Virus record (IMG/VR): IMGVR_UViG_3300032216_001891
Span: 90,555-154,554 of that record
Direction: 5' to 3' (one strand)
DNA length: 64,000 nt
Source of the DNA: a virus
Lineage: Duplodnaviria > Caudoviricetes
Of this stretch, positions 41,055 to 52,577 are shown one piece after another. A program made the translations under genes and the position numbers. Numbering within the stretch: position 1 is the stretch's first letter; each line of letters starts with the position of its first letter. The notes beneath the pieces are model-generated. The model did no database searches and had not been told where the DNA came from. It was given only the letters and a program-made list of their open reading frames with translations.

Positions 41055-41146
41055 TTGCTCGTTTTAGGGAGTTTTGGGCACGACTCCTACTCCTCCCAGG
41101 CCAGCAGCCGGCCACACCACCGTAACTAGTACGGGTCCTAAGGTGA
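41055..41146 (-). ncRNA. candidate structured non-coding RNA
   Basis: GC-rich intergenic stretch with stems CACC/GGUG, CCGUA/UACGG, GGCC/GGCC and GGGAG/CUCCC. Confidence 0.4.
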
Positions 41147-41155
41147 TTCTTTACG

Positions 41156-42850
41156 CTAGAAGACGCCGATGGGATCCACTATAACCAACTGCCCGTTGGC
41201 ACGTCTTCTAATATTTTCAATCTGACCCAAATCCAAATGATAACCTTTTGGCCCAACCAACCCATCAATGATCGCTTCGGTGGCATTTATCAAGCCCGCC
41301 AATTGTTGTTCACTAATGCTGGAGGGTCTTGTTTTATTCTTCATGAACGCATCCAACGCCAGCCGACCTCGTTCCATGGCTGTCATCAAATCCTCAATGT
41401 ATTCTAGAGTAGCTTCTTCACTGGCCACATATTCCAAATACTCTGTTTCGTACACAAAATAATATTCCCTGCCCAGCCAAAACTCTCCTGAATTATATAT
41501 TTGTGGATAATATGTATTGTGTTGATTACGTTGAAAAAACTCCACATAGTCACGCACAGCCTGTTCTCTATCACCATCGCCTATACCCAACACCTTGACT
41601 ATGGTGTTTCTTGGGCTTTTGAAAACCATTTGATCCCGTCCTTCGCCCACGTACTTGTAGCCTTTTGAAAAGAAATAGTCTTGTATTTTTTCGCTGACAG
41701 TGAGTTCATCTGCATCGTTGACTTCGGCAAGTTCCACAGATTCTTTTGTATTCAAATCGCCTGCATAATGCGATATACTACTGTCACTGAAAGGATTATA
41801 TTCTCCTTGTGCTGTCTTTTGTAGTCCCATTTGTTGATAAAAACCTGCACTGTTCCATTTGGCTTCTACACGTATGGTCTTGGCACCACGTTGCAAAGCC
41901 TCTTTAGCAGCACGAGTATACAGTTCACGACCTGCACCGGGTTCACCAATACTGCCAAGCCATAACACATGTGCTTCGGTACCCGCCAGTTCAATGTGTA
42001 TAGCAGACATTTTGGCAACAACACCATGGTAGTTGTACATGAAGATATTATGATCCAATGTACCTTTTTTCATAGAGATGATGTGATTTTTTAACACTGC
42101 TTCAATGGCTGTTAATGCTTGATAATCTTTTTCTAATTTTTCTTCCTGTGCAGGTGTTATTCGCTCATCCATGGAAAGATCATCAACCCGTTCCATGGCC
42201 CGTTCAACCTTGCTTAACACAGTGCTGATTGCTTGTGGGTTGATGGCTTGTTCAGCAAGTTCCACAGATTCTCTTGCAAATTCTCTAGCCCTGCCCTCGG
42301 GGTCCACATGCCAAGCATAGAATCTTGTGTTGGGATATTCCTGTTTCAGTTCCATGAAACTGTTCAAGTTGGGCACAGCATCATCATACATGATGGCCTT
42401 GGTGTAAAGACCTTGATTCAACAAATCACGTATGATCTTCTTTTTCTTTTCTTCTGTTGTAGCACCCTTCATGTTGCCGGCACGGTACACATGCACACGA
42501 CTCATGTCAACACCGTACTTGCGAAAGGTGTCTAAAAACAGTTCTTTATCATCAAAGTCAGCTCGTGCAGTCACCATCACAACACGGTTGCCGGTGTTGA
42601 TGTCGTGCTTGAGTTGATTCATCATGGGAATGATTGGACGTGATTTTTCAAAAAATTCTCGTGCGTTTCTAAAGTCTGCAAAGTCAAACTCTTCGCCCGG
42701 TTGGAGTTGATACAGGGTAAAGTCATGACTGTTTAGGCTTCGAATCACGCGACCATCTCGAATCACATGCACTCGAGTTTGTGTATGCACTAGAGTGTCG
42801 TCTATGTCAAACACCACCAGTTTGCTTGGTTGTATCTCGTCGGCTCTCAT
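41156..42850 (-). CDS. multi-domain protein: HAD phosphatase-like + GNAT-like + protein-kinase-like modules
   Basis: VFDIDDTL/MVTAR/MYDD (HAD); GAGRELY...AGFYQQMG (GNAT); VGEGRDQMVF, IVKV, DLGQIEN, IVDP (kinase-like); modules separated by two ESVELAE copies. Confidence 0.7.
   Translation of the reverse strand: MRADEIQPSKLVVFDIDDTLVHTQTRVHVIRDGRVIRSLNSHDFTLYQLQPGEEFDFADFRNAREFFEKSRPIIPMMNQLKHDINTGNRVVMVTARADFDDKELFLDTFRKYGVDMSRVHVYRAGNMKGATTEEKKKKIIRDLLNQGLYTKAIMYDDAVPNLNSFMELKQEYPNTRFYAWHVDPEGRAREFARESVELAEQAINPQAISTVLSKVERAMERVDDLSMDERITPAQEEKLEKDYQALTAIEAVLKNHIISMKKGTLDHNIFMYNYHGVVAKMSAIHIELAGTEAHVLWLGSIGEPGAGRELYTRAAKEALQRGAKTIRVEAKWNSAGFYQQMGLQKTAQGEYNPFSDSSISHYAGDLNTKESVELAEVNDADELTVSEKIQDYFFSKGYKYVGEGRDQMVFKSPRNTIVKVLGIGDGDREQAVRDYVEFFQRNQHNTYYPQIYNSGEFWLGREYYFVYETEYLEYVASEEATLEYIEDLMTAMERGRLALDAFMKNKTRPSSISEQQLAGLINATEAIIDGLVGPKGYHLDLGQIENIRRRANGQLVIVDPIGVF
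41723..42272. repeat. 22 bp direct repeat (21/22 identical) flanking the GNAT module
   Basis: ttcggcaagttccacagattct at 41723-41744 and ttcagcaagttccacagattct at 42251-42272; 528 bp apart, in frame. Confidence 0.9.
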
Positions 42851-43782
42851 GATTGATCTAACCCATCTATATTAATTGGCATATCTTGCGGAGCAGATGT
42901 TAGTAACATAGTTACAGCTAGTTCAGCTGCTGATTGAGTTGAAAACAATGCCGAATGATCAATTGGTTGTCCTTTATATTTTGCAAGGTACTGTCTTGGC
43001 CAAACATCATCGGGGTCGTTATTAAATTCAAGTTTTACAATGGTTTTTTCTGTTGGTTCTCTATAAATTTTAGTAATAGTTTTTGGTGCTGTTGACCCAA
43101 ACAAATGTGGAAATCCTCCGTGAGAAGACATAACTAAATTTATTACGGCAACTGTGCTTCCAATTTTAATGTTTATATTTTTTCTTTGATCTAATCTCTT
43201 AAATGTGTTTAAAATCTTTTCGCTATCTTGTAGTGCCGATTCTGTTACAGAATTTTTATTAAATATTCTAGAGGATATAGTACGAATATTGACCCAATGA
43301 GTCAACTGTGTACAATTTTCACGCAATACAGGCATGATATTATGTTTAACATACTCCATTACTTCTCCTGGAGAATATAATTCTTTGTAATAGAATTCTT
43401 TACTTTCTTTTAATTCAAAAAACTCCGGATGTTGCTTGCCAAAGTCACGCATGAGTACACCGGCCGCTGCATTGGCTTGATTTTCGGCGTCACTGCCGGT
43501 GGCTCCGTCACCTGGATCCAGTTCATCTTGTTCTCTTTGTCGTGCATGTACCAATTCGTGAGCCAGAGTGCGTAACACATCAATGGGGTGTCTATCACCC
43601 ACTACTAAATTTATTTGTTCTGTCTCCATGTTGAATCCACCAAAACTAGTATCAATGGGCTCACGAAGCAATCGAATTTTGGGAACAGATTTTAATTTTA
43701 CTTGACCAACAAACCAAGGCAAGTGCTGTCGAACCACTGATACAGTGTCTTGACCTTCAACAAGTATTTCAACAATTTTCAT
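42847..43782 (-). CDS. zincin-like metallopeptidase domain plus an unrelated AT-rich C-terminal module
   Basis: RTLAHELVHARQ (HExxH), ENQANA; N-terminus MKIVEILVE. Confidence 0.7.
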   Translation of the reverse strand: MKIVEILVEGQDTVSVVRQHLPWFVGQVKLKSVPKIRLLREPIDTSFGGFNMETEQINLVVGDRHPIDVLRTLAHELVHARQREQDELDPGDGATGSDAENQANAAAGVLMRDFGKQHPEFFELKESKEFYYKELYSPGEVMEYVKHNIMPVLRENCTQLTHWVNIRTISSRIFNKNSVTESALQDSEKILNTFKRLDQRKNINIKIGSTVAVINLVMSSHGGFPHLFGSTAPKTITKIYREPTEKTIVKLEFNNDPDDVWPRQYLAKYKGQPIDHSALFSTQSAAELAVTMLLTSAPQDMPINIDGLDQS

Positions 43783-44465
43783 TTTTTATGGCCTGACTTC
43801 ATGTTGGCACACCAGTGGTACATTCGAGCCCGTTCGCCCGATGCATTTTTGGCTTTACGACGAAGGTCAGTTACACTGCCTGCACAACTGGCACCCGAAC
43901 GTTTCACACGTCCGGGACGACTCTTGCCTCGTACCTTGCCATCGGCAAAGTTTTCATCTATATCTTTTTCTAAAAAACAATCGGCAATTTCTTGGCATAC
44001 ATGCTGTATTTTTTCGTTTTGTGTGGCAACGCAATCAAATGTGTTGTGTTGGGTATGTATATCCTGTGTGGGATCCATGTAACCACAATACACTCGATGT
44101 ATGTTTAAGTCATCCATTAGTTCGCTACAGCTGATGCCTGCACGTTCTTGAGCCATGTGTCCTGTACGTTCTACACAAGGGCTCAGTGTGGTAATCATTA
44201 AACAACCCGAGGGCAACTCACCATGTGCTTGCTCGTAATTTCTCACTGCCGCACGTTCGGCATGTATACGTTTGCTGTTATCAACAACATGATTGATACC
44301 CAAGGCTTGATTGCCTTTGGGGTCTACTACACAAGCAGCCACCAGTCCATAATGATCGGCGTTTTTACGCTGTGCCTGCAGGATCATTTCGCAAAGATCC
44401 ACTAGAATACGATCGTACTCTTCGGTATTGTCAAACTGGTGCGTAAGGATTTCTTGGGCGATCAT
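43779..44465 (-). CDS. cytidine/deoxycytidylate deaminase-like domain plus a basic C-terminal module
   Basis: VAACVV, HAERAA, TTLSPC...SC; followed by DENFADGKVRGKSRPGR module. Confidence 0.7.
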   Translation of the reverse strand: MIAQEILTHQFDNTEEYDRILVDLCEMILQAQRKNADHYGLVAACVVDPKGNQALGINHVVDNSKRIHAERAAVRNYEQAHGELPSGCLMITTLSPCVERTGHMAQERAGISCSELMDDLNIHRVYCGYMDPTQDIHTQHNTFDCVATQNEKIQHVCQEIADCFLEKDIDENFADGKVRGKSRPGRVKRSGASCAGSVTDLRRKAKNASGERARMYHWCANMKSGHKK

Positions 44466-44510
44466 CTTCAGGGTTTTCCGGTTCAGGATACACAGGGTAA
44501 GGATAGTTCA

Positions 44511-45392
44511 TCAGCAATTCCAACGACGACGTGCCTTGCATATTGCCTTGTCCGGAGTCTTGGAACACGAAATGTTATGCATCTTCATTTGACCTCGGCT
44601 TCTTGAACAGTAGCTTTTTCTACGCTTTGACGCTTTGCTACCACGCTTTAGCTTCGACGGCTTGGTGGTTACAGCAGTTTTTAATTTTGAACCCGGATGC
44701 TCTCTGCGATAGGCATTGACAGCTTTTTGACTCATGCCTGATGTGTGATCCTTTTTATTGACCTTTTGCCAATCTTCAGTGATGGTTTGTTGTGTGACTG
44801 CAAATACATACAGTTCATCATCTGTTAATGATTCTAGGTCTTCCCATATCACTTCGGCATCTACACCGTTGTGATCAGCCAAGCCTTCAATGATGCTTTC
44901 AACAAGATCAAACTCTTCATTTAAATCTCCATTGTAATTGTCGTGTTTATCACGAATACTATCTAATTCTTCTTCGCTGGCTCCGTCACGCCCGGCTTTT
45001 GCTAGTTCTTTCATTCCATCTTTGCCGTATTTCATTACACCTTTAGCAGCACGACTCATTGTTTTTTCTTCTTCAATGACACTTTCATTGGGCACACAGT
45101 TACGCACCTGTCCGCCGTTTTTACCCCGCTTGGTGCCTTCGGCATGTTTGCCGGGCCAGCAACGGGTAAAACCGTTGGCGTCCTTTTGACCTTTGGCAAT
45201 TTCATTTAAGTTGCCGTGTGTTTGACACCGGCCGCAATCCGGGCAAGTCATTTCCATTACTTCATGACTTTCATTATGCTTCTTTTTACCAGCACAGTGA
45301 GCCCGTTGACTAAATCCCTTTGGGTGTGAGCAGTTGATACTCTTCTTGTATTTGGCTGTCCACTTTTCTGTTAGTATTTCGCTGATTCTCAT
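44511..45392 (-). CDS. modular basic, Cys-rich protein (putative internal head polyprotein)
   Basis: Start refined to MRISEILTE; short Lys/Arg/Cys-rich segments separated by xNE/LNE/ITE. Confidence 0.65.
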   Translation of the reverse strand: MRISEILTEKWTAKYKKSINCSHPKGFSQRAHCAGKKKHNESHEVMEMTCPDCGRCQTHGNLNEIAKGQKDANGFTRCWPGKHAEGTKRGKNGGQVRNCVPNESVIEEEKTMSRAAKGVMKYGKDGMKELAKAGRDGASEEELDSIRDKHDNYNGDLNEEFDLVESIIEGLADHNGVDAEVIWEDLESLTDDELYVFAVTQQTITEDWQKVNKKDHTSGMSQKAVNAYRREHPGSKLKTAVTTKPSKLKRGSKASKRRKSYCSRSRGQMKMHNISCSKTPDKAICKARRRWNC

Positions 45393-45826
45393 TTCAATGT
45401 ACTCTTTAGCATCCATGCGTGTTTTCTAAAAGCATCCATTCTTTCGGCAAGAAAATTGCTGAAGCCGTGTTCACCTGCTGCCTCGGCTTGATCGTAAACA
45501 ATTTTTAATATTTTAACCATTTTGTCTGCATCTTCCAACAGTTCTGCCACCATTGCTTCTCCGGGGAGCACCTGTGTTTCATCTTCAATGCGGGTCAACA
45601 TGCTGAATCTACTGTTTGACCCGGGAGCATAAGCACCTAAACTACGAATCTTTTCAGCAAACTCGTCAACAGTGCCGTAAACTTCTGTATACACAGTTTC
45701 AAATAATGCATGTAGTTCTTGGAAGTGTATTCCTTCAACATTCCAGTGAAAGAATGCGGCCTTTAAATAAAATGTAAATTGACTGGCAAAGGCTATCTTT
45801 GCCGCTTGTGTTAGTTCATCGTTCAT
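45389..45826 (-). CDS. dps: Dps/ferritin-like protein
   Basis: FHWNVEG, FQELHALFE, DEFAEKIRSLG, KHAWML. Confidence 0.93.
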   Translation of the reverse strand: MNDELTQAAKIAFASQFTFYLKAAFFHWNVEGIHFQELHALFETVYTEVYGTVDEFAEKIRSLGAYAPGSNSRFSMLTRIEDETQVLPGEAMVAELLEDADKMVKILKIVYDQAEAAGEHGFSNFLAERMDAFRKHAWMLKSTLK

Positions 45827-48621
45827 AGTATCTCGTATCCTGCTTGTTTAAGTTGTTGTAGATAATTTTCCATGATGTCAAGTTCGTCGTCACCATGCCA
45901 GCTTTTTTCTTCTTTATCATCTGCGTATTTATTGTATTCAACATTGCTAGTATGGAAACTGTGTTTTCCGTAATTATACAAGTCAACAACTACAAACGAT
46001 TGGCCACGACCAAACTCAACTATGTCACCAGTGGCACCGTTGAACTCGACCGATCCTGTGATGATGACAGGATCACCCACATGCAACTGTTGACCTTCTG
46101 CAACACCGTGTATCGGGCTAGTGCTGTCCACTGCCACTGGCATGTTGCTGTCTTCGTCAAATGATCGCAGTCCTTGCCCGGCAGGGCATAGGGTATATAG
46201 CGGCACCTTGAATCTGTTTTTAGTCTCATCACCAATCTGTGCCATTCTGCCTTCTATTTTTTGAACTTTGTATATTCTTCCACCGTAGTCAACTGACTTG
46301 CCTGGAGTTAACCACGCAGGTGTCTTGGCCTCGGCCACATCCTGCTTGTCACCCGTAATAGCCTGTAACATGGCACGTGCCACCACACGATCTTTTTCTT
46401 TTTCTTCTTCTGGTAACTGAGCATAATTCTGCGTTACCAGACGTTGACGCTGTGCTATCTTGGCTTGTAGTTTTTCTGGAGCCATAGTTTTACTGTCGTC
46501 AAATATCATTGGGTTTTGTATAAATGCCTGTGCGGTGACATTCCACCCTCTGTGGATGGCATCACTGATCTTTTCAATATCAGTCTCACCTGCATCAATC
46601 ATCTTTTTAGCATAAGCAGCTGATTTCAAGTTGGCCTGCCATCCAAATGTGTTACCTGGTGTGCTACGACCATAATGATAAGCCGCATCTAATGCCTCGT
46701 CACTGATGGTGGCTAACTGTTCTACACTCAATGGTTTTCCAGTAGATTCGGCCAATGCCTTATTTTGTAAATCTTCTAATTTATCAGCCATTTTATATAT
46801 AACATCTTTATCCACTTCTTGCATGGCTTTGGCTGCAATTTTGCCAAACTCTCCGTGTCCTTTCTGCAACCAAGCAGCAGCTTGTGCAACTCCGTATGCG
46901 GCTGCAACAGCAGCAAAGGTTGCAACAGGAATGCCCCATTTACCCAAGGTTGAGAATATCATGCCCCACCCTCCCGAGAACCCCGGTAACATGTCAGTAA
47001 TACCTTCCGCTACATCTTGCTCATCGTAACGCTTTCTGTTGGCAAAGTGTTTTTTAATGCTGGCATTGCTGGTGCGTGGCTTGCGTTTAATTTTATAACC
47101 AAGACCAAGTTTTTTCACAGCCGCACGTGCCTGTTCTTGACTGTTGTAAACAGTCTCTTCACCATTGCCTACAACAATGTAAGAATAGTTTACATCCGGA
47201 GTATCACCTTCCGCTATGCCCGACTCACGGGTCATGTACCGGTCGGCATCTGCGGCTCTGCACTGTGCCGGATCTGTTGGATCAAACTTTGCATTGCCCA
47301 TTGTAAAATTCTTTCCGTATTTCTTATAAAGACTATTTGCAAGATTCTCTCTGGCTCGGCTGGCGGTTGACAAGGTAGGAAATACTTTCCAGTAGATATT
47401 ATTGCCACCTTGAGTTTTTCTCCACCAAACCACTTGCGGAGTATTTTCTATTGGGCCATTGCGATCAACATAGCCTTCCGCCACACCTTGTCTAATCATA
47501 AGTTGGCTTGCTGGTCCGATCCCACGTCCGGTTACACGATTAAACTTTAACATTTCCCCAGTATTATGATCATACACTACAATGACAGTTGGTGTTTCAC
47601 GTTCAATATTAAATGCACCGTACTTGCCCATATCCTTACCATGTTGATGCTGATGTACTTGGACAACGTCTCCGGAGCCTTCCGCCACACCTTGGAATTT
47701 ACTTTGTATCTCTTGTAATGCTTGAGCCAATAGTTCAGTTGGTGCCCGACTGAGTAATTGTGATATATCGTCGTTGAACTGACGGTATAACCGACCCCAA
47801 GTTGGGCAACCGTGTGCCATTGCATGAGCACGATTACTACTGCCTTCTTGATCTAGAGAGCGAACGTATTTCCAAAGTTCACGTCTAATCGTGTCACGAT
47901 CGGTTGGAGCAACCAGTTCTCTACGTGCATCTCTAGACAACGGAGCAGTTTCCTCCACATCTCGCACAGCAACACCGTAGCGACGCAACAGATTTCTACC
48001 ATCACTCACTCTAAATGCACCTTTTACATAAGGTCCCACTCGCTTGATGGCTTTTTGTTCTATATGGGGTAGATGCATTTCAGCCTGTTCAGGAGTGTTG
48101 TATTCACCGTATATCACTGCTGCACCATCCCAGGCCCATACATAATACGAACCGGGATCAACCGGATACTCTCTACCTCGAATGGTTTCAATTGCTTCCT
48201 CCACACCCGAACCAATGGGACTTGCTACATTGTCTGAATCCTGTGTGGCCGCCACTCCGTTCAAGCCTGCAGATGTGAATAAGTCCGTATCTTCATCAGC
48301 ACGAGAACCACTTAATTCTTCCGGAGTCCACTGTGTATAACTGTCTCCGTTTTCGTCATGATTCTGTACTACAAATGCACCACCGTCTTCGTCTTCAACT
48401 TCGCCAATGCCCCAGTTTGATTGGCCTAGAATAGTTTCTACTTGCCGTTGTACAGCAGAATCGCCGTTCCACCACATGCGAGCATACTTAAACAACATGT
48501 CATCATTGCTCGAGTCATCGGGTTCTGCTACAGCAAACTCGTGTATGATTTCAATCCGGGATTCGCTGACCGTGGGTTTGCTTGGGTTTTTGTTGCTGTC
48601 AAATAAGTCGTATATGTTCAT
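45823..48621 (-). CDS. 932 aa modular polyprotein with repeated (G/D)VAEG-type linkers; includes RyR-like and KOW/SH3-like modules
   Basis: GVEEA, DVEET, GVAEG x3, GIAEG, DVAEG, DVAEA; AIHRGW...YAQLPEEEKEKDR (RyR repeat-like); LHVGDPVIITG (KOW-like). Confidence 0.75.
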   Translation of the reverse strand: MNIYDLFDSNKNPSKPTVSESRIEIIHEFAVAEPDDSSNDDMLFKYARMWWNGDSAVQRQVETILGQSNWGIGEVEDEDGGAFVVQNHDENGDSYTQWTPEELSGSRADEDTDLFTSAGLNGVAATQDSDNVASPIGSGVEEAIETIRGREYPVDPGSYYVWAWDGAAVIYGEYNTPEQAEMHLPHIEQKAIKRVGPYVKGAFRVSDGRNLLRRYGVAVRDVEETAPLSRDARRELVAPTDRDTIRRELWKYVRSLDQEGSSNRAHAMAHGCPTWGRLYRQFNDDISQLLSRAPTELLAQALQEIQSKFQGVAEGSGDVVQVHQHQHGKDMGKYGAFNIERETPTVIVVYDHNTGEMLKFNRVTGRGIGPASQLMIRQGVAEGYVDRNGPIENTPQVVWWRKTQGGNNIYWKVFPTLSTASRARENLANSLYKKYGKNFTMGNAKFDPTDPAQCRAADADRYMTRESGIAEGDTPDVNYSYIVVGNGEETVYNSQEQARAAVKKLGLGYKIKRKPRTSNASIKKHFANRKRYDEQDVAEGITDMLPGFSGGWGMIFSTLGKWGIPVATFAAVAAAYGVAQAAAWLQKGHGEFGKIAAKAMQEVDKDVIYKMADKLEDLQNKALAESTGKPLSVEQLATISDEALDAAYHYGRSTPGNTFGWQANLKSAAYAKKMIDAGETDIEKISDAIHRGWNVTAQAFIQNPMIFDDSKTMAPEKLQAKIAQRQRLVTQNYAQLPEEEKEKDRVVARAMLQAITGDKQDVAEAKTPAWLTPGKSVDYGGRIYKVQKIEGRMAQIGDETKNRFKVPLYTLCPAGQGLRSFDEDSNMPVAVDSTSPIHGVAEGQQLHVGDPVIITGSVEFNGATGDIVEFGRGQSFVVVDLYNYGKHSFHTSNVEYNKYADDKEEKSWHGDDELDIMENYLQQLKQAGYEIL
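47472..47694. repeat. 19 bp perfect direct repeat CAAGGTGTGGCGGAAGGCT (minus strand) encoding QGVAEG
   Basis: agccttccgccacaccttg at 47472-47490 and 47676-47694; 14 bp core again at 50144-50157. Confidence 0.9.
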
Positions 48622-49295
48622 CGTGTAGTTCCTGCTGAGGGTGGTGTTTGCCCGGGTTGATTTGTTGCTGGTTGTCCTGGTTGCCCAGGCTTTGATCCCT
48701 GTGTGTTGGCGGCTGTTTGTCCCATGGACTTTTGAGCCTGTTGTACCTGTTTGTTTTTTTGTAATTCTGTTTGTTGTGTTTTATCCAACAACTGTTTGAA
48801 CTGACCAGCAGTTTGTGGATTCTGCAAGATATTACTGGCTGCTACTCCCAGTGGTGCCAATTGATTTTGTTCAGCATTGCTGAGGTTGGTGTTGGGAGCT
48901 TGATCCAATTTATCCATTACACCAGTGAACTTGGCAGGATTCATCTGCTGAGCACTGCCCAGCTGATTTAACTTTGGTTTAATTTGATTCACTGATTTTT
49001 GTATCTGTGCTTGATCTGTTTTCTGTTGCATTACCGCTGGATCGGGTTTTTGTGCAGTGGAGCCTTGTGGAGTTTGAGCAGCAGCTCCATAACCACCCAC
49101 GCCACCGTATTCGGCAACATAGGAGTAATACTCCTGCATCAAGTCTTGGGCAGTTTGTTTCACCTGCGGACGACTTTTTAATTCAGCTTGTAATTCTCGC
49201 AGTACACTTTCAGTGACAGAGGTTGATGGTTGAACCGACGGTGTTGCGGTGTCAGCAATGGTGTCCATGCGATGGATTAGTGTGCGTAGATCCAT
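48618..49295 (-). CDS. Gln/Pro-rich hypothetical protein
   Basis: 225 aa, MDLRTLI start, VTE and VAE sites. Confidence 0.65.
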   Translation of the reverse strand: MDLRTLIHRMDTIADTATPSVQPSTSVTESVLRELQAELKSRPQVKQTAQDLMQEYYSYVAEYGGVGGYGAAAQTPQGSTAQKPDPAVMQQKTDQAQIQKSVNQIKPKLNQLGSAQQMNPAKFTGVMDKLDQAPNTNLSNAEQNQLAPLGVAASNILQNPQTAGQFKQLLDKTQQTELQKNKQVQQAQKSMGQTAANTQGSKPGQPGQPATNQPGQTPPSAGTTR

Positions 49296-50872
49296 TATCT
49301 TTTAATCGTACTAGATTTTTTAGCAGATTTTTTCTTAGCAGCAAAGGGACTGTCAGGGTTCTCGTAAGTTCCACCAAACAGTGTGCCAGTCTTGGGGCCT
49401 GATCCTGGATTGATTGCTGTGCTGATGCCAGAACTAAAACTTTCAATTATTTGATCTAAATCTTCATCCAGCTCTTGACTGGCACCGGGCATGTCTCGTA
49501 GTTTGTTTTTTAAACCAGCAACTCTTGCACGATAGGTTCGAGCCTTGGCTTGATCACCGGCTTTGTCGGCACGATCGGCAATCGCGGTATATTTTTCAAT
49601 TTGTGTTTTTACAGTGACTCTATCCATGCCCTCTGTTACTTCTTTATCTTCCGCCAAACCTAGATCCAATCCCGGGCGAATCTTTTTTTCTCTATCAAAT
49701 TTAACATCAAGAGCACGATCAATGCGATTGGTGCCCGGTTTGTCTAACGTGCGTAGATTATCATGATCAGTTGTGCCACCATACGCCGCAGTGCTGCGAT
49801 GACGTAGGCCTTTGGCTGTTTTGGTAATTTCACCTTCTGCTACACCGCCGACAGATTCTGGCACCTGACAATCAAAACGGCTGATGGCACGATCTGTTGC
49901 ACTGGTGTCCTTGTGTGCGGCTCCACCTGGTTCATATGGTTCTGGTTTTACTCTAGGCTCGCTACGTATACCAGTATCTGTGTCAACATCAACTACTTTA
50001 AGACCTTTTTTAGCATAAAACTGTGTGATATTCTCAATCTCTTCCATGAATTCATCACTATAAACTCGCACTCGGCGTGGAGGATTTTTTTCAGGATTTT
50101 CAAAATGCACAGTCCATATGTAGTACTCACCTCGGCCGGCACTTTCCGCCACACCTTCGCCAAATCTATTTGTTGGGGATATATTGCGTGGATCAGAGAA
50201 GTCAATACTAGGCTCAGGCATACTATATTCATGAACTTCGTGAACCCACTCCTCTGGAATATCTAACTTACGAGCAATAGTTGCCGCTGGTACACCCTTT
50301 ACCAGCAAGTCAATGATCTGTCGATCAATTTTACTTTGTGGGCCATTGCCTTCCACTACACTTTGATCTTCATTCACAGCCCGGTGTTTCACATCCTTCA
50401 AGTGTGCATCAACACCCGCGGTGTTTTTTAATTTCCATTTGGCAGCGGCTTTTCGAGCTGCTTCATAGGAAGTCTTGGCTGTTACCTCGCACTGGCCTTT
50501 CTTTGCATGTACACAAACATAAGCATGTTCTGCATCACTCTCGCCCAATAAATCAGCAAACTTTTCTTCAGCTTCGGCAATGTCAAATGCTGTCATGCCA
50601 CTGGCATGCGGTCTTTCGCCGCCCATGACCTCGTACTCTAACCATTCGGCCACAGTTTTCAAGTAGTCATTGGCTAGACTGATCTTTTCAGCGGCCCAAG
50701 CATCTAGCTCGTGTCCATCAGGCAGTTCGCCAATTAATTTATGTAGTTTGATTGCGTTGACAGCTGAGTGATAGCACTCTTCTCTCAACATGTGGTGTTG
50801 ATGGCTTTGATGCATTTGGTGTGCGTCATCACCGATGAATTCGTTTTCTTTTAGAAATTCTTGTGGTTTCAT
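49295..50872 (-). CDS. modular polyprotein with VAE-type linkers, includes an HTH-like module
   Basis: Start refined to MKPQEFLKE below TAAATA (50895-50900); SVVEG, GVAES, GVAEG, LAED, VTEG; IIDLLVKGVPAATIARKLDIPEEWV. Confidence 0.7.
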   Translation of the reverse strand: MKPQEFLKENEFIGDDAHQMHQSHQHHMLREECYHSAVNAIKLHKLIGELPDGHELDAWAAEKISLANDYLKTVAEWLEYEVMGGERPHASGMTAFDIAEAEEKFADLLGESDAEHAYVCVHAKKGQCEVTAKTSYEAARKAAAKWKLKNTAGVDAHLKDVKHRAVNEDQSVVEGNGPQSKIDRQIIDLLVKGVPAATIARKLDIPEEWVHEVHEYSMPEPSIDFSDPRNISPTNRFGEGVAESAGRGEYYIWTVHFENPEKNPPRRVRVYSDEFMEEIENITQFYAKKGLKVVDVDTDTGIRSEPRVKPEPYEPGGAAHKDTSATDRAISRFDCQVPESVGGVAEGEITKTAKGLRHRSTAAYGGTTDHDNLRTLDKPGTNRIDRALDVKFDREKKIRPGLDLGLAEDKEVTEGMDRVTVKTQIEKYTAIADRADKAGDQAKARTYRARVAGLKNKLRDMPGASQELDEDLDQIIESFSSGISTAINPGSGPKTGTLFGGTYENPDSPFAAKKKSAKKSSTIKR

Positions 50873-50904
50873 GCGTAACTCCAGTATATTATAGTATTTA
50901 GCAA

Positions 50905-51183
50905 CTATATTGTAAACGATAAATCTTGACTGCTGATGCCGGCGCCGTCGACAGTGAAGTTTTTTACAACAATGCAACCTTGTGTAACACATTCTTCTAC
51001 AGTCAACTGATGTTCACCGGGTTCAAGATCTACCTCAATATTTTCTCGAACATAAACACTGTATGCTGGCCAACACCAAGTGCGTTCAGTGAGTAGATCA
51101 CTGTCAACATAAACTCTATACACAGGAGTACCTGCAGCAGTGGAGTTGCAATGAACATCCACACAAAGTACACGTAGGGTCAT
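50905..51183 (-). CDS. hypothetical beta-rich protein
   Basis: PVYRVYVDSDLLTERTW; start refined. Confidence 0.6.
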   Translation of the reverse strand: MTLRVLCVDVHCNSTAAGTPVYRVYVDSDLLTERTWCWPAYSVYVRENIEVDLEPGEHQLTVEECVTQGCIVVKNFTVDGAGISSQDLSFTI

Positions 51184-52082
51184 TGATGCGAGCCCTGCCA
51201 AAGTTGCTGAATTTTACGTTTTAACTCGGCAATTTTCTTTTGATAGTAGGGTTTGACTGCGGAATCAATGTTGCCATCAGCGATCAAATCTTGATAATAG
51301 TCAATGTCATCTCGATATTTTTTAATCAAGTACACAGTGGTATCTGTCACAGGATTGTTTTCTGCTAGATCAAATGCACGTAAATTTTTATTGATAGCTC
51401 CGGGACGTACATCCTGGGTCAAGCTCATACTGTAGCGTGGATCACGTGCTTGACTCTTGGAAGCAATCACTCCTGATGCATCTTCTTGCACAGCAAGATA
51501 CTTGTCTAATATGTGTTGAGCTGCAACAGGATCAGCCGGATACAGTTCTTTTGCCCATGCTCGTCGTTGCTGGGGTGTGGCCCCGGGCCACTGGTTGCGT
51601 ATTTCGCTGGCACTGGTAATGCCTCCTGTGAATTCCACTGTGGGCAAGTACGCCATGTAACCGTGTTGACTCAAGGGTTTGAGTGTTTTACCAATGGGTT
51701 GTAGATAGCTGGGCTCACCGTTCTTTTTTACACCGCCGGCTCTTGGCGGCTCTGCACGGTCTTTTTCGCTTCTAGCAAAAATCAATACTGTGTTGTTGGC
51801 GTCGTACTGATCAACTATTTCTTTTGCTTGAAAGGGACTTTTGACTTGTACAAAATGTCCTGCGGGAACACCGGCAATTTCAGCTAGTCGAGCCTTGTCA
51901 CTGAAATCAAACGGACGTTGATTTTTGTCGTTGGTGGATGCATAGTAAATGTCGGCCTTGGGAAAAGCCTGCTGTGCAGATTGATATAAAGAAAAATGGC
52001 CTGGGTGAAAAGGATGAAATCCTCCAGGCAGGATCACAAGAGTTTTCTTCGAGGTTGCTTCAAATAAATCTGCTATGAACAT
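51180..52082 (-). CDS. HxGH-class nucleotidyltransferase (cytidylyltransferase-like) with appended modules
   Basis: PGGFHPFHPGH, RPFDF, SASEIR; MFIADLFE start; VQE and LAE linkers before C-terminal modules. Confidence 0.75.
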   Translation of the reverse strand: MFIADLFEATSKKTLVILPGGFHPFHPGHFSLYQSAQQAFPKADIYYASTNDKNQRPFDFSDKARLAEIAGVPAGHFVQVKSPFQAKEIVDQYDANNTVLIFARSEKDRAEPPRAGGVKKNGEPSYLQPIGKTLKPLSQHGYMAYLPTVEFTGGITSASEIRNQWPGATPQQRRAWAKELYPADPVAAQHILDKYLAVQEDASGVIASKSQARDPRYSMSLTQDVRPGAINKNLRAFDLAENNPVTDTTVYLIKKYRDDIDYYQDLIADGNIDSAVKPYYQKKIAELKRKIQQLWQGSHQ

Positions 52083-52112
52083 GACAATATCCGTTTACAG
52101 CAGTATTTAGCT

Positions 52113-52577
52113 TTAAATGTGTTCCAACAACCAAAGATAAAAAGGATTGGTCCAATGAAACTGCCACTCACCGTTCCATCCAAGATTTATACAGTTTTTA
52201 ACCACCGAGACTGTTTCGCCGTTGTGTACCACTGGTTCATCAACATGATATTCACTTGACTTATAGATTACACTCTTCAAATCAATTTCATCAATTTCCA
52301 CACTGACAATGTTCAACAACATATCCTTGACTATGCCGGTCTTGTCGGCATTTTCCACAGTGTCTTGTGGAGTTTTGTTTTCCAAGCGTATCTGCAACCG
52401 GTTGAGTTCCACATCGGATTCCATGTCAAACTCTACATAAAAAACTTCCTCCGTGGCTGTATCCACCAGTGAGGATGACACCACAGCCATGTCATTGACT
52501 AAAACACTGTATTGGGGTGGTCGATCCCAATACGTGCCACTGAGTCCAATTCGAAAGTGTAAGGTTTCTTTTTCCAT
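52113..52577 (-). CDS. hypothetical protein
   Basis: 154 aa, NLGWNG...PFYLWLLE. Confidence 0.7.
   Translation of the reverse strand: MEKETLHFRIGLSGTYWDRPPQYSVLVNDMAVVSSSLVDTATEEVFYVEFDMESDVELNRLQIRLENKTPQDTVENADKTGIVKDMLLNIVSVEIDEIDLKSVIYKSSEYHVDEPVVHNGETVSVVKNCINLGWNGEWQFHWTNPFYLWLLEHI

Follow-up and report, generated by a model that had tools for sequence, protein, structure and literature searches.

Candidate packaged effector polyproteins with capsid-targeting-like leaders and a DNA-conserved linker in an uncultured T4-superfamily jumbo phage

Introduction

Why would a single run of phage genes encode strings of unrelated small modules that start alike and are joined, time and again, by nearly the same short peptide? 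This question is raised by a block of ten genes at positions 41156-52082 (minus strand) of a 64,000-nucleotide (nt) stretch of viral DNA, here called the window, which comprises bases 90555-154554 of a 154,554-bp linear IMG/VR virus contig (IMGVR_UViG_3300032216_001891) rated 44% complete. The original prediction, made from the sequence, was that these genes encode precursors that are targeted to the capsid by their leaders, cut at their linkers by the prohead protease and delivered at infection. We found that the block and its relatives share an architecture of leader, modules and linkers, with shuffling of the modules and a linker that is conserved as DNA. The joint claim that the leader is a capsid-targeting signal, that the Peptidase_S77 (gp21-type) prohead protease (S77) cuts the linkers and that the pieces are injected appears, from its close match to phage T4, somewhat probable.

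Linker peptides and module borders

The genes are co-directional at the positions first reported: ten of them fill the block, all on the minus strand, with start/stop overlaps of 1-4 nt and only two real gaps. The eight with which the original prediction was concerned are as follows (protein lengths in amino acids, aa).

51180..52082, minus: 300-aa protein; leader MFIADLFE; residues 1-200 form an HxGH nucleotidyltransferase-like module, with VQE and LAE each followed by a short C-terminal segment
49295..50872, minus: 525-aa polyprotein; start MKPQEFLKE, about six modules, one of them HTH-like; linkers GVAES, GVAEG and GLAED, plus SVVEG and IAEA
48618..49295, minus: 225-aa Gln-rich protein; second leader class (MDLRTLIHRMD...)
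45823..48621, minus: 932-aa polyprotein; leader MNIYDLFD; modules 34-110, about 143-314, 315-382, 383-471 and 472-539 in the N-terminal part, and 540-625 (hydrophobic), 626-764 (RyR-like), 765-842 (small beta-barrel) and 843-932 in the C-terminal part
44511..45392, minus: 293-aa protein; leader MRISEILTE, basic Cys-pair peptides, an acidic middle and a C-terminal DUF6321
43779..44465, minus: 228-aa protein; leader MIAQEILT, a cytidine/dCMP-deaminase fold, then a basic Cys module after IDE
42847..43782, minus: 311-aa protein; leader MKIVEILVE-G, an HExxH zincin-like module (1-126) and two more modules after LKE and VTE
41156..42850, minus: 564-aa protein; HAD/Pnk-type phosphatase (1-200), GNAT-like (201-376) and kinase-like (377-564) modules

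Recurrence of the linkers, a central point of the original prediction, is borne out. The pattern [GD][VLI]AE[GAS] occurs nine times in two open reading frames (ORFs), namely the 932-aa ORF and a 565-aa ORF that is the longest one containing the 525-aa polyprotein, compared with one copy in the other 45,674 residues of the contig (expected 0.03; Poisson P 1e-19). In addition, ESVELAE is found twice in the 564-aa protein. All linkers have an aliphatic residue at P3 and Glu at P1. The codons of the aliphatic-Ala-Glu triplets, together with the module that two of them border, lie at the following positions.

50144..50152, minus: V-A-E of GVAES, 525-aa polyprotein
49835..49843, minus: V-A-E of GVAEG, 525-aa polyprotein
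49649..49657, minus: L-A-E of GLAED, 525-aa polyprotein
47680..47688, minus: V-A-E of QGVAEG, 932-aa polyprotein; linker DNA CAAGGTGTGGCGGAAGGC
47476..47484, minus: V-A-E of QGVAEG, 932-aa polyprotein; 18-mer identical to that at 47680..47688
47209..47217, minus: I-A-E of SGIAEG, 932-aa polyprotein
47005..47013, minus: V-A-E of QDVAEG, 932-aa polyprotein
46747..46755, minus: L-A-E of ALAES, 932-aa polyprotein, N-terminal border of the RyR-like module
46330..46746, minus: RyR-like all-helical module, residues 626-764 of the 932-aa polyprotein
46330..46338, minus: V-A-E of QDVAEA, 932-aa polyprotein, C-terminal border of the RyR-like module
46096..46104, minus: V-A-E of HGVAEG, 932-aa polyprotein
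42251..42259, minus: L-A-E of ESVELAE (copy 1), 564-aa protein
41723..41731, minus: L-A-E of ESVELAE (copy 2), 564-aa protein

A profile-free query of the 932-aa protein against 1.84 billion representative proteins returned 1041 matches, the best 149 of which display the leader/module/linker architecture. Among these best 149, QGVAE and GVAEG are the commonest pentapeptides, above any within the conserved domain, and the linker logo of the homologues reads (in percent) Q49-G63-V76-A-E followed by G47. We also examined the borders of the commonest module in 14-residue windows that were anchored on its conserved core and not on the motif. Aliphatic-x-Glu is present at 115 of 124 downstream and 115 of 132 upstream borders, compared with 21% of random windows (P about 1e-60). 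Here, the aliphatic and Glu positions are fixed by the search pattern and Glu at P1 is given by construction, while P2 is free and takes A, T, S, E, N, D, K and other residues. Moreover, borders with unrelated DNA retain aliphatic-x-Glu (ESVELAE, LKE, VTE and VVE in the block; MAE, VSE and VTE in relatives), and this points to a constraint on the peptide itself. Translation starting internally behind the linker was considered and rejected, as no conserved Met is present there.

Conservation of the linker as DNA

One feature that the original prediction did not contain is that the canonical linker is kept at synonymous sites. It forms a conserved DNA element of approximately 18 nt, CAA GGT GTG GCG GAA GGC, and conservation stops sharply on both sides. 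In the window, the linker Ala is encoded by GCG at six of nine sites, compared with 7% of the Ala codons of the contig (P 8e-6). At related loci, which were retrieved via the common module and not via the linker, GGT occurs 55 times, GTG 51, GCG 54 (background 10%), GAA 55 and GGC 41 among the 57 GVAEG sites of 42 distinct ORFs.

The exact 15-mer occurs in at least 120 IMG/VR stretches. By a rough estimate, a random 15-mer would be expected to occur tens of times in a collection of this size; among the 160 IMG/VR matches listed, 142 encode GVAEG in frame within ORFs of 150 aa or more, on which ground a chance origin of the matches was rejected, and 96 are preceded by Gln. A role of the 15-mer as a frame-independent DNA signal was rejected as well, because all 108 of the 108 near-copies of the linker DNA in 807 kb are in frame and on the coding strand.

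The linker sites are non-orthologous and their flanking modules are saturated at synonymous positions; thus, the linker DNA was either copied with the modules or kept identical by exchange, and for this reason the consensus is far tighter than a gp21-type protease needs. Recombination between linkers fits as the shuffling mechanism, and conservation of the DNA against the codon bias suggests in-frame cassette exchange. The ~18-nt linker might have two jobs, serving as a prohead-protease site at the peptide level and as a dedicated in-frame cassette-exchange signal at the DNA level, which we propose as a tentative possibility.

Module shuffling and predicted structure

The original prediction would have been contradicted by an invariant module order among related phages; the comparison shows that both content and order vary strongly. 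Two close relatives from other metagenomes (L002 and L003) are 82-97% identical to the source contig in the shared parts, and whole modules are replaced, inserted or deleted. In the L002 counterpart of the 564-aa protein, the flanks (1-200 and 376-564) are 92% and 85% identical, and the GNAT-like middle has been swapped exactly between the LAE sites. Residues 1-123 of the 311-aa protein correspond to a complete stand-alone 124-aa protein in L002 and L003, the counterpart of the 932-aa protein in relatives has 1399 aa with extra modules, and the N-terminal part of the 228-aa protein is replaced by another module in L002 with the basic C-terminal part retained. The SVVEG of the 525-aa polyprotein is SGVAEG in L002, and the 225-aa protein has an 82% identical orthologue there. 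Overall, 14 of the 18 homology breakpoints relative to L002 fall within four residues of a [VLI]xE site, for which chance would give 17% (P 2e-8).

When 47 related polyproteins were cut at the linker, the resulting 193 segments formed 137 clusters, with the common module in the first to fifth place. Residues about 620-766 of the 932-aa protein recur at almost any position of proteins of 179-1399 aa, with 42-84% identity. The RyR-like module is the most widespread of all, and more than 150 protein clusters and 80 viral contigs contain copies of it that are 62-97% identical and vary in position.

Linkers lying inside folded domains would speak against processing; in the AlphaFold model of the 932-aa protein, the sites lie between domains. 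The full model is poor overall, with a mean predicted local distance difference test (pLDDT) score of 57, and shows confident islands (40-100, 480-515, 630-758 and 770-815) separated by low-confidence stretches; all seven sites are located in stretches with pLDDT <50 or at domain edges. The clearest case is the linker at 760-766, with pLDDT <50 between two domains above 90. No fold was obtained for modules 315-471 and 843-910 in this model, and the sites between them can therefore be placed with low confidence only. The AlphaFold (AF2) model of the RyR-like module by itself has a pLDDT of 93 with disordered ends.

Leaders resembling the T4 capsid-targeting sequence

Seven of the ten block genes start with a 9-residue leader that resembles the capsid-targeting sequence (CTS) of T4. 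Its consensus, M-[KRN]-x-x-[DE]-[ILF]-[ILF]-x-E, is present in most of the proteins of the block. The N-termini quoted in the original prediction all exist, although not all belong to one class: the loose pattern M-x(2,3)-[DE]-[ILFM]-[LFIQVY] covers seven of the ten genes, MDLRTLIH represents a second recurrent class and MRADEIQ is a weak match. The same loose pattern is found in 6 of the 141 other ORFs of the contig (Fisher P 6e-7), and one of these few outside matches is a 74-aa head-core protein (MFLTEMYDE). Both MRISEILTE and MKPQEFLKE are internal Met codons within their longest ORFs; the former is the likelier start because of an ATGA overlap with the upstream Dps-like gene and the latter because GGAG is located 7 nt upstream.

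In T4, the CTS is MKTYQEFIAE (PMC8442874), in which positions 4 and 7 matter for targeting and positions 8 and 10 for processing; gp21 cleaves after L/I-X-E, and the CTS propeptides removed comprise 10-19 aa (PMC9026906). The leaders studied here are one residue shorter, and the aromatic/aliphatic pair and the closing aliphatic-x-Glu are kept. By pattern match, aliphatic-x-E closes four leaders, at residues 7-9 or 6-8 (MKIVEILVE, MRISEILTE, MKPQEFLKE and MFIADLFE). At the hydrophobic and Glu positions that matter in T4, the leader sequences resemble the CTS (PMC9026906, PMC8442874).

The leader pattern is also present in 58 of 139 complete homologues from other phages, such as M-K-A-Y-E-F-V-T-E, M-R-A-N-E-F-L-T-E and M-I-I-D-E-L-F-E-A. 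Some of these leaders run straight into a linker (for example M-K-I-Q-D-I-I-T-E-N-Q-Q-G-V-A-E-G), and an identical first module may be seen behind various leaders or without one. Other recurrent N-terminal classes occur, including that of the 225-aa protein.

Source phage, head module and prohead protease

The family-B DNA polymerase of the contig shares 50% identity with its counterpart in Sinorhizobium phage Phosso, 46% with that in Agrobacterium phage Atu_ph07 and 42% with those in Rak2-like Erwinia, Serratia and Yersinia jumbo phages. On the basis of these similarities, the source is an uncultured T4-superfamily jumbo phage of about 350 kb.

A Peptidase_S77 prohead protease (PF03420) is encoded by the same contig outside the window (G000:C1:20259-20897; 97.8 bits vs a cut-off of 27). 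It belongs to a head module with T4-like order: portal, 74-aa protein, 332-aa acidic protein, Peptidase_S77, 367-aa scaffold and gp23-type capsid. The scaffold protein contains 26 [VLI]xE sites, and the delta-domain of the capsid protein has LLE/LLE/ILE/LME inside its first 42 residues. Two other proteins of this module have N-termini that resemble the polyprotein leaders and are near the T4 CTS, namely MNKYEQLIE in the acidic core protein (G000:C1:20922-21920, minus) and that of the 74-aa head-core protein mentioned above (G000:C1:22041-22265, minus).

We surveyed 15 large related contigs for S77, including ten with the common module and five retrieved by the linker 15-mer, and found the protease in seven. 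The gp23-type capsid gene is present in all five S77-bearing records tested, the source contig included. In the four contigs without S77 that were tested, capsid and portal genes were likewise not detected; because these are missing too, the four look like fragments without the head module.

Module identities

The module types named in the original prediction fare unevenly in database searches: the deaminase is recovered by Pfam and the HAD module by PHROGs, while the GNAT, kinase-like, zincin, HTH, nucleotidyltransferase and RyR matches are all below threshold. The 228-aa protein matches dCMP_cyt_deam_1 (PF00383) at residues 27-128 (5.5e-11; 42.7 bits vs 25), and the C-terminus of the 293-aa protein matches DUF6321 (PF19846; 1.2e-8; 35.9 bits vs 28.5), a module that also occurs in cyanomyoviruses and pelagiphages. 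The N-terminal module of the 564-aa protein is a Pnk-type HAD phosphatase according to PHROGs (2.4e-10), with the Pfam HAD match below threshold. Among the block proteins, PHROGs named only this phosphatase and a Dps-like protein. Pfam searches of single modules with E up to 1 gave sub-threshold matches only, including Kinase-PolyVal (E 0.04), zincin M91 (E 0.03), GNAT (E 0.0016) and, likewise below threshold, HTH. For the module of the 300-aa protein, CTP_transf_like (E 0.002) is sub-threshold and the PDB matches, to phosphopantetheine adenylyltransferases, are weak (E 0.02); in other phages this nucleotidyltransferase module is found with a leader, without one or fused to the RyR-like module.

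Several weak leads connect the most widespread module with RyR domains, and membership is unproven. Its match to PF02026 is partial (14.0 bits vs a gathering threshold of 27.4; E 0.06), a sequence search of the PDB with a 30-homologue profile yielded no RyR chain, and Foldseek of the model against the PDB gave no hit at E <=0.001. VIA returned 3nrt_A (Z 4.5, root-mean-square deviation 7.4, 78 aligned, 23% identity) and 4erv_A (Z 3.9, root-mean-square deviation 4.7, 92 aligned, 20% identity), which are within helical-bundle noise, although no other chain listed has a higher identity. In the Atlas, viral RyR proteins make up the nearest clusters (0.82-0.83), a lead only. An alignment of the module shows invariant H65-x-x-W68, a later E-K-D-R and D119; in the RyR/RyDEP family, the residues for ligand and catalysis are a His, a Trp three positions on, another His and an Asp.

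A side observation concerns the DUF6321 module. In the cultured T4-like cyanophage Synechococcus phage B23, gp266 (L006 3437-4567) is a 376-aa protein with small basic Cys modules and a DUF6321 end; its gene is located between two record-annotated terminase genes and has neither a CTS-like leader nor GVAEG linkers.

Expression signals and other features of the block

Four further features of the block are listed below.

52104..52110, minus: CTAAATA late-type motif, 27 nt before the start of the 300-aa gene
50905..51201, minus: 98-aa gene within the block, with neither leader nor linkers and outside the leader-bearing set
50888..50916, minus: sigma-70-like promoter TTTACA-17-TATAAT (11/12) just upstream of the 525-aa gene; its spacer contains CTAAATA (50895-50901)
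45389..45826, minus: leaderless 145-aa Dps/ferritin-like gene inside the operon, conserved next to polyproteins of this type

The late-type TAAATA motifs of the original prediction are present, as CTAAATA at 50895 and 52104, 27-29 nt before the starts of the 525-aa and 300-aa genes. Elsewhere in the contig, CTAAATA is found 18-36 nt before the capsid, portal and tail genes and, at such spacing, before some replication genes. The total count in the window is not above shuffles (11 vs 7.2), and only the position of the motif is informative.

The Dps-like protein matches Pfam Ferritin (1e-20) and the PHROG 'DNA binding protein' (2e-25), and of 198 related polyprotein loci, 46 have a homologue of its gene; as a partner it might serve in DNA compaction or iron/oxidative protection, which is a guess. 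Homologues of the 98-aa gene are present in 23 of the 198 loci. By eye, this gene and the 154-aa gene just upstream of the block (52113-52577, minus) look like distant paralogues, with no family match. After the last gene of the block there is a GC-rich non-coding stretch (41055-41146), in which a simple terminator scan found none on the minus strand.

Proposed mechanism and alternative explanations

The reading that we favour is that this T4-superfamily jumbo phage encodes effector precursors in the block, as a hyperplastic operon. The leader would dock each precursor onto the scaffolding core of the prohead, and S77 would then remove the leader and cut after the Glu of every linker, releasing enzymes and binders of internal-protein size (7-30 kDa) inside the capsid. 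These products would be ejected along with the DNA, acting ahead of all phage gene expression. Candidate cargo includes a RyR-like nucleotide-signal binder or hydrolase, a deaminase, a nucleotidyltransferase, a phosphatase, a GNAT, a kinase-like module, a zincin and basic Cys peptides. Identity of the linker DNA might let co-infecting relatives recombine cassettes in frame, and the cargo could thus evolve quickly. The packaged-polyprotein proposal is partly supported, by S77 and a T4-like head, CTS-like leaders, aliphatic-x-Glu linkers, interdomain sites and variable modules.

Several observations weigh against it. Two leaders have Asp at the end or no Glu at position 9, and by pattern match the terminal Glu is missing in MNIYDLFD, MIAQEILTH and MRADEIQ; Asp at the cleavage position blocks processing according to a T4 review. 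L139 (IMGVR_UViG_3300032268_000986; 342,865 bp, rated 99% complete), one of the four S77-less contigs mentioned above, carries a genuine SQGVAEG linker and has no detectable S77, gp23 capsid or portal; either its completeness estimate is wrong or a linker-bearing phage has a different head type. The hydrophobic module 540-625 of the 932-aa protein (46747-47004, minus), a long Gly/Ala-rich stretch with a homologue in only one related locus, would be an odd capsid cargo and is possibly membrane-active; the other modules look soluble. Moreover, neither the block nor the 932-aa protein nor the RyR-like module had a match among 50,697 phage genomes, cultured or deposited, that were searched by near-identity and tblastn, and in the same genomes the 564-aa and 300-aa proteins matched only uncultured huge-phage records, apart from weak partial matches.

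Two further points concern the linker itself. Its DNA-level conservation offers a partial non-proteolytic reason for the motif, and the predicted maturation sites of the capsid protein are L-x-E with varied P2 and not QGVAEG, so that the extra conservation of the linker is not explicable by protease specificity alone. Both would suit an explanation in which the proteins stay uncleaved as multi-domain 'polyvalent' proteins, the linker being a flexible hinge and a DNA micro-homology for in-frame shuffling whose likeness to a gp21 site is incidental. Such an explanation also accounts for synonymous positions that are nearly invariant across non-orthologous sites, for linker DNA that is widespread and always in frame, and for module swaps that break at the linker repeat. 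However, neither a hinge nor a recombination joint needs the aliphatic-x-Glu that is kept at ~90% of the borders, even with unrelated DNA; the CTS-like leaders and leader-linker fusions are left unexplained, and tethering unrelated modules with differing targets brings no obvious gain. We therefore consider it unlikely that the proteins act uncleaved.

Packaging is also questioned by where and when the genes seem to be expressed. The block adjoins polB and DNA-modification genes and not the head module, and the strong sigma-70-like promoter, which the original prediction missed, overlaps the late motif before the 525-aa gene. Late expression is therefore plausible, not exclusive, and the promoter sequence suggests that the polyproteins may be made early also, or only early. 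An early promoter and a location among replication genes would fit cleavage in the cytoplasm by another peptidase, either the HExxH zincin of the 311-aa protein or a host Glu-specific protease, with products that are not virion cargo. Of 198 related loci, 19 contain the HExxH module, which in L002 is a protein by itself, and processing of polyvalent proteins by MPTase domains has been proposed by Iyer et al. 2017 (PMC5512222). On the other hand, aliphatic-x-Glu is the experimentally defined specificity of S77 and not of zincins (PMC9026906), the zincin module itself bears a CTS-like leader that ends in LVE-G, its zincin match is sub-threshold (E 0.03) and late-type promoter motifs are present. 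Cytoplasmic cleavage thus seems quite improbable to us. Finally, although the motifs are short and partly chosen post hoc and the CTAAATA total is unexceptional, a chance or compositional likeness of leaders and linkers among ordinary multi-domain proteins is practically negligible in view of the P values for linker (1e-19), leader (6e-7), breakpoints (2e-8) and module borders (about 1e-60) and of an architecture repeated in 149 homologous protein clusters and at least 120 viral contig stretches.

Significance

If packaging and processing of the precursors are true, a large clade of environmental phages of ~350 kb supplies small enzymes and binders as a processed cocktail at DNA entry, the time when restriction, Thoeris-type signalling and abortive infection decide the outcome. 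The CTS/gp21 paradigm of T4, which covers single internal proteins, would then extend to true polyproteins of tailed phages. In practice, the linker provides a sequence handle for splitting hundreds of unannotated polyproteins into candidate counter-defence modules, with a discovery set that comprises the linker in at least 120 IMG/VR stretches and more than 1000 protein clusters homologous to the 932-aa protein. Leader and linker might also provide a natural blueprint by which several proteins are loaded as cargo into capsids of the T4 type.

The DNA-conserved in-frame linker would offer a concrete, testable mechanism for domain shuffling. Should it have both of the jobs suggested above, this uncultured jumbo-phage clade would share a plug-and-play library of small injected effectors, which recombination re-sorts without breaking frame, targeting or processing, and which would represent a phage counterpart, inside genes, of integron cassettes or polymorphic-toxin loci.

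Comparison with known systems

Our literature searches, on the linker peptide and on polyproteins together with prohead proteases, found no description of this linker system; T4 internal proteins and polyvalent proteins come closest among known systems. With regard to single modules, phage RyR domains degrade or sponge cyclic ADP-ribose signals (PMC13232231). The module 626-764 is comparable with RyDEP/RyR proteins in being helical, in having the invariant H-x-x-W and later E-K-D-R, and in its weak leads to RyR domains; it differs in that its Pfam score is 14 bits vs 27.4, no PDB or cultured-phage match was found, the fold match is within noise and equivalence of catalytic residues is not established. 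An anti-Thoeris role of the RyR-like module would suit an injected effector.

Polyvalent proteins (PMC5512222) carry many unrelated effector-type domains per polypeptide (kinase, GNAT, nucleotidyltransferase, zincin peptidase and others), with predicted delivery together with the invading DNA, predicted processing into units and extensive mosaicism. The proteins studied here likewise have two or more unrelated effector-type domains per polypeptide and a mosaic architecture, with independently folded islands, 137 module clusters among 193 segments and a variable order. They differ from polyvalent proteins, for which autoprocessing by embedded MPTase domains was proposed; in the passages of that paper that we searched, the word 'prohead' appears once and 'linker' and 'RyR' were not found; the modules here are also much smaller (60-280 aa), and the hallmark domains are matched only below threshold (Kinase-PolyVal E 0.04).

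In giant phages (phiKZ gp175 and SPN3US gp245 proteases), a gp21-related prohead protease cuts many head-internal proteins after Glu at short motifs, some of them at several sites, and the products are ejected into the cell (PMC9026906, PMC10052503). The phiKZ-like ejection proteins belong to another phage lineage and are not described as shuffled chains of unrelated enzyme modules with a DNA-conserved linker. Their cleavage motifs also differ, being S/A/G-X-E and A-X-E.

The IPI, IPII and IPIII internal proteins of T4, together with Alt, are similar in many respects. The T4 superfamily, S77 and a T4-like scaffold/core are found here too, as are short leaders with a hydrophobic/Glu pattern of the E-F-I-x-E type, candidate sites of aliphatic-x-Glu followed by a small residue, predicted products of 7-30 kDa, genes in a hyperplastic locus away from the head genes and a cargo that plausibly acts in counter-defence, as does IPI. 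In contrast, T4 internal proteins are single modules cut once after the CTS, while up to ~9 modules with internal sites occur here; the leader here is one residue shorter, and the linker, kept as DNA, has a much tighter consensus (QGVAEG). Short DNA identities, such as the CTS-coding DNA at polymorphic internal-protein loci and promoter-stem-loop cassettes, reportedly border exchanged T4-type units. As proposed for the linker, such identities at unit borders may permit recombinational exchange; the element described here differs in that it is intragenic, in frame and ~18 nt long, and also encodes a putative cleavage site.

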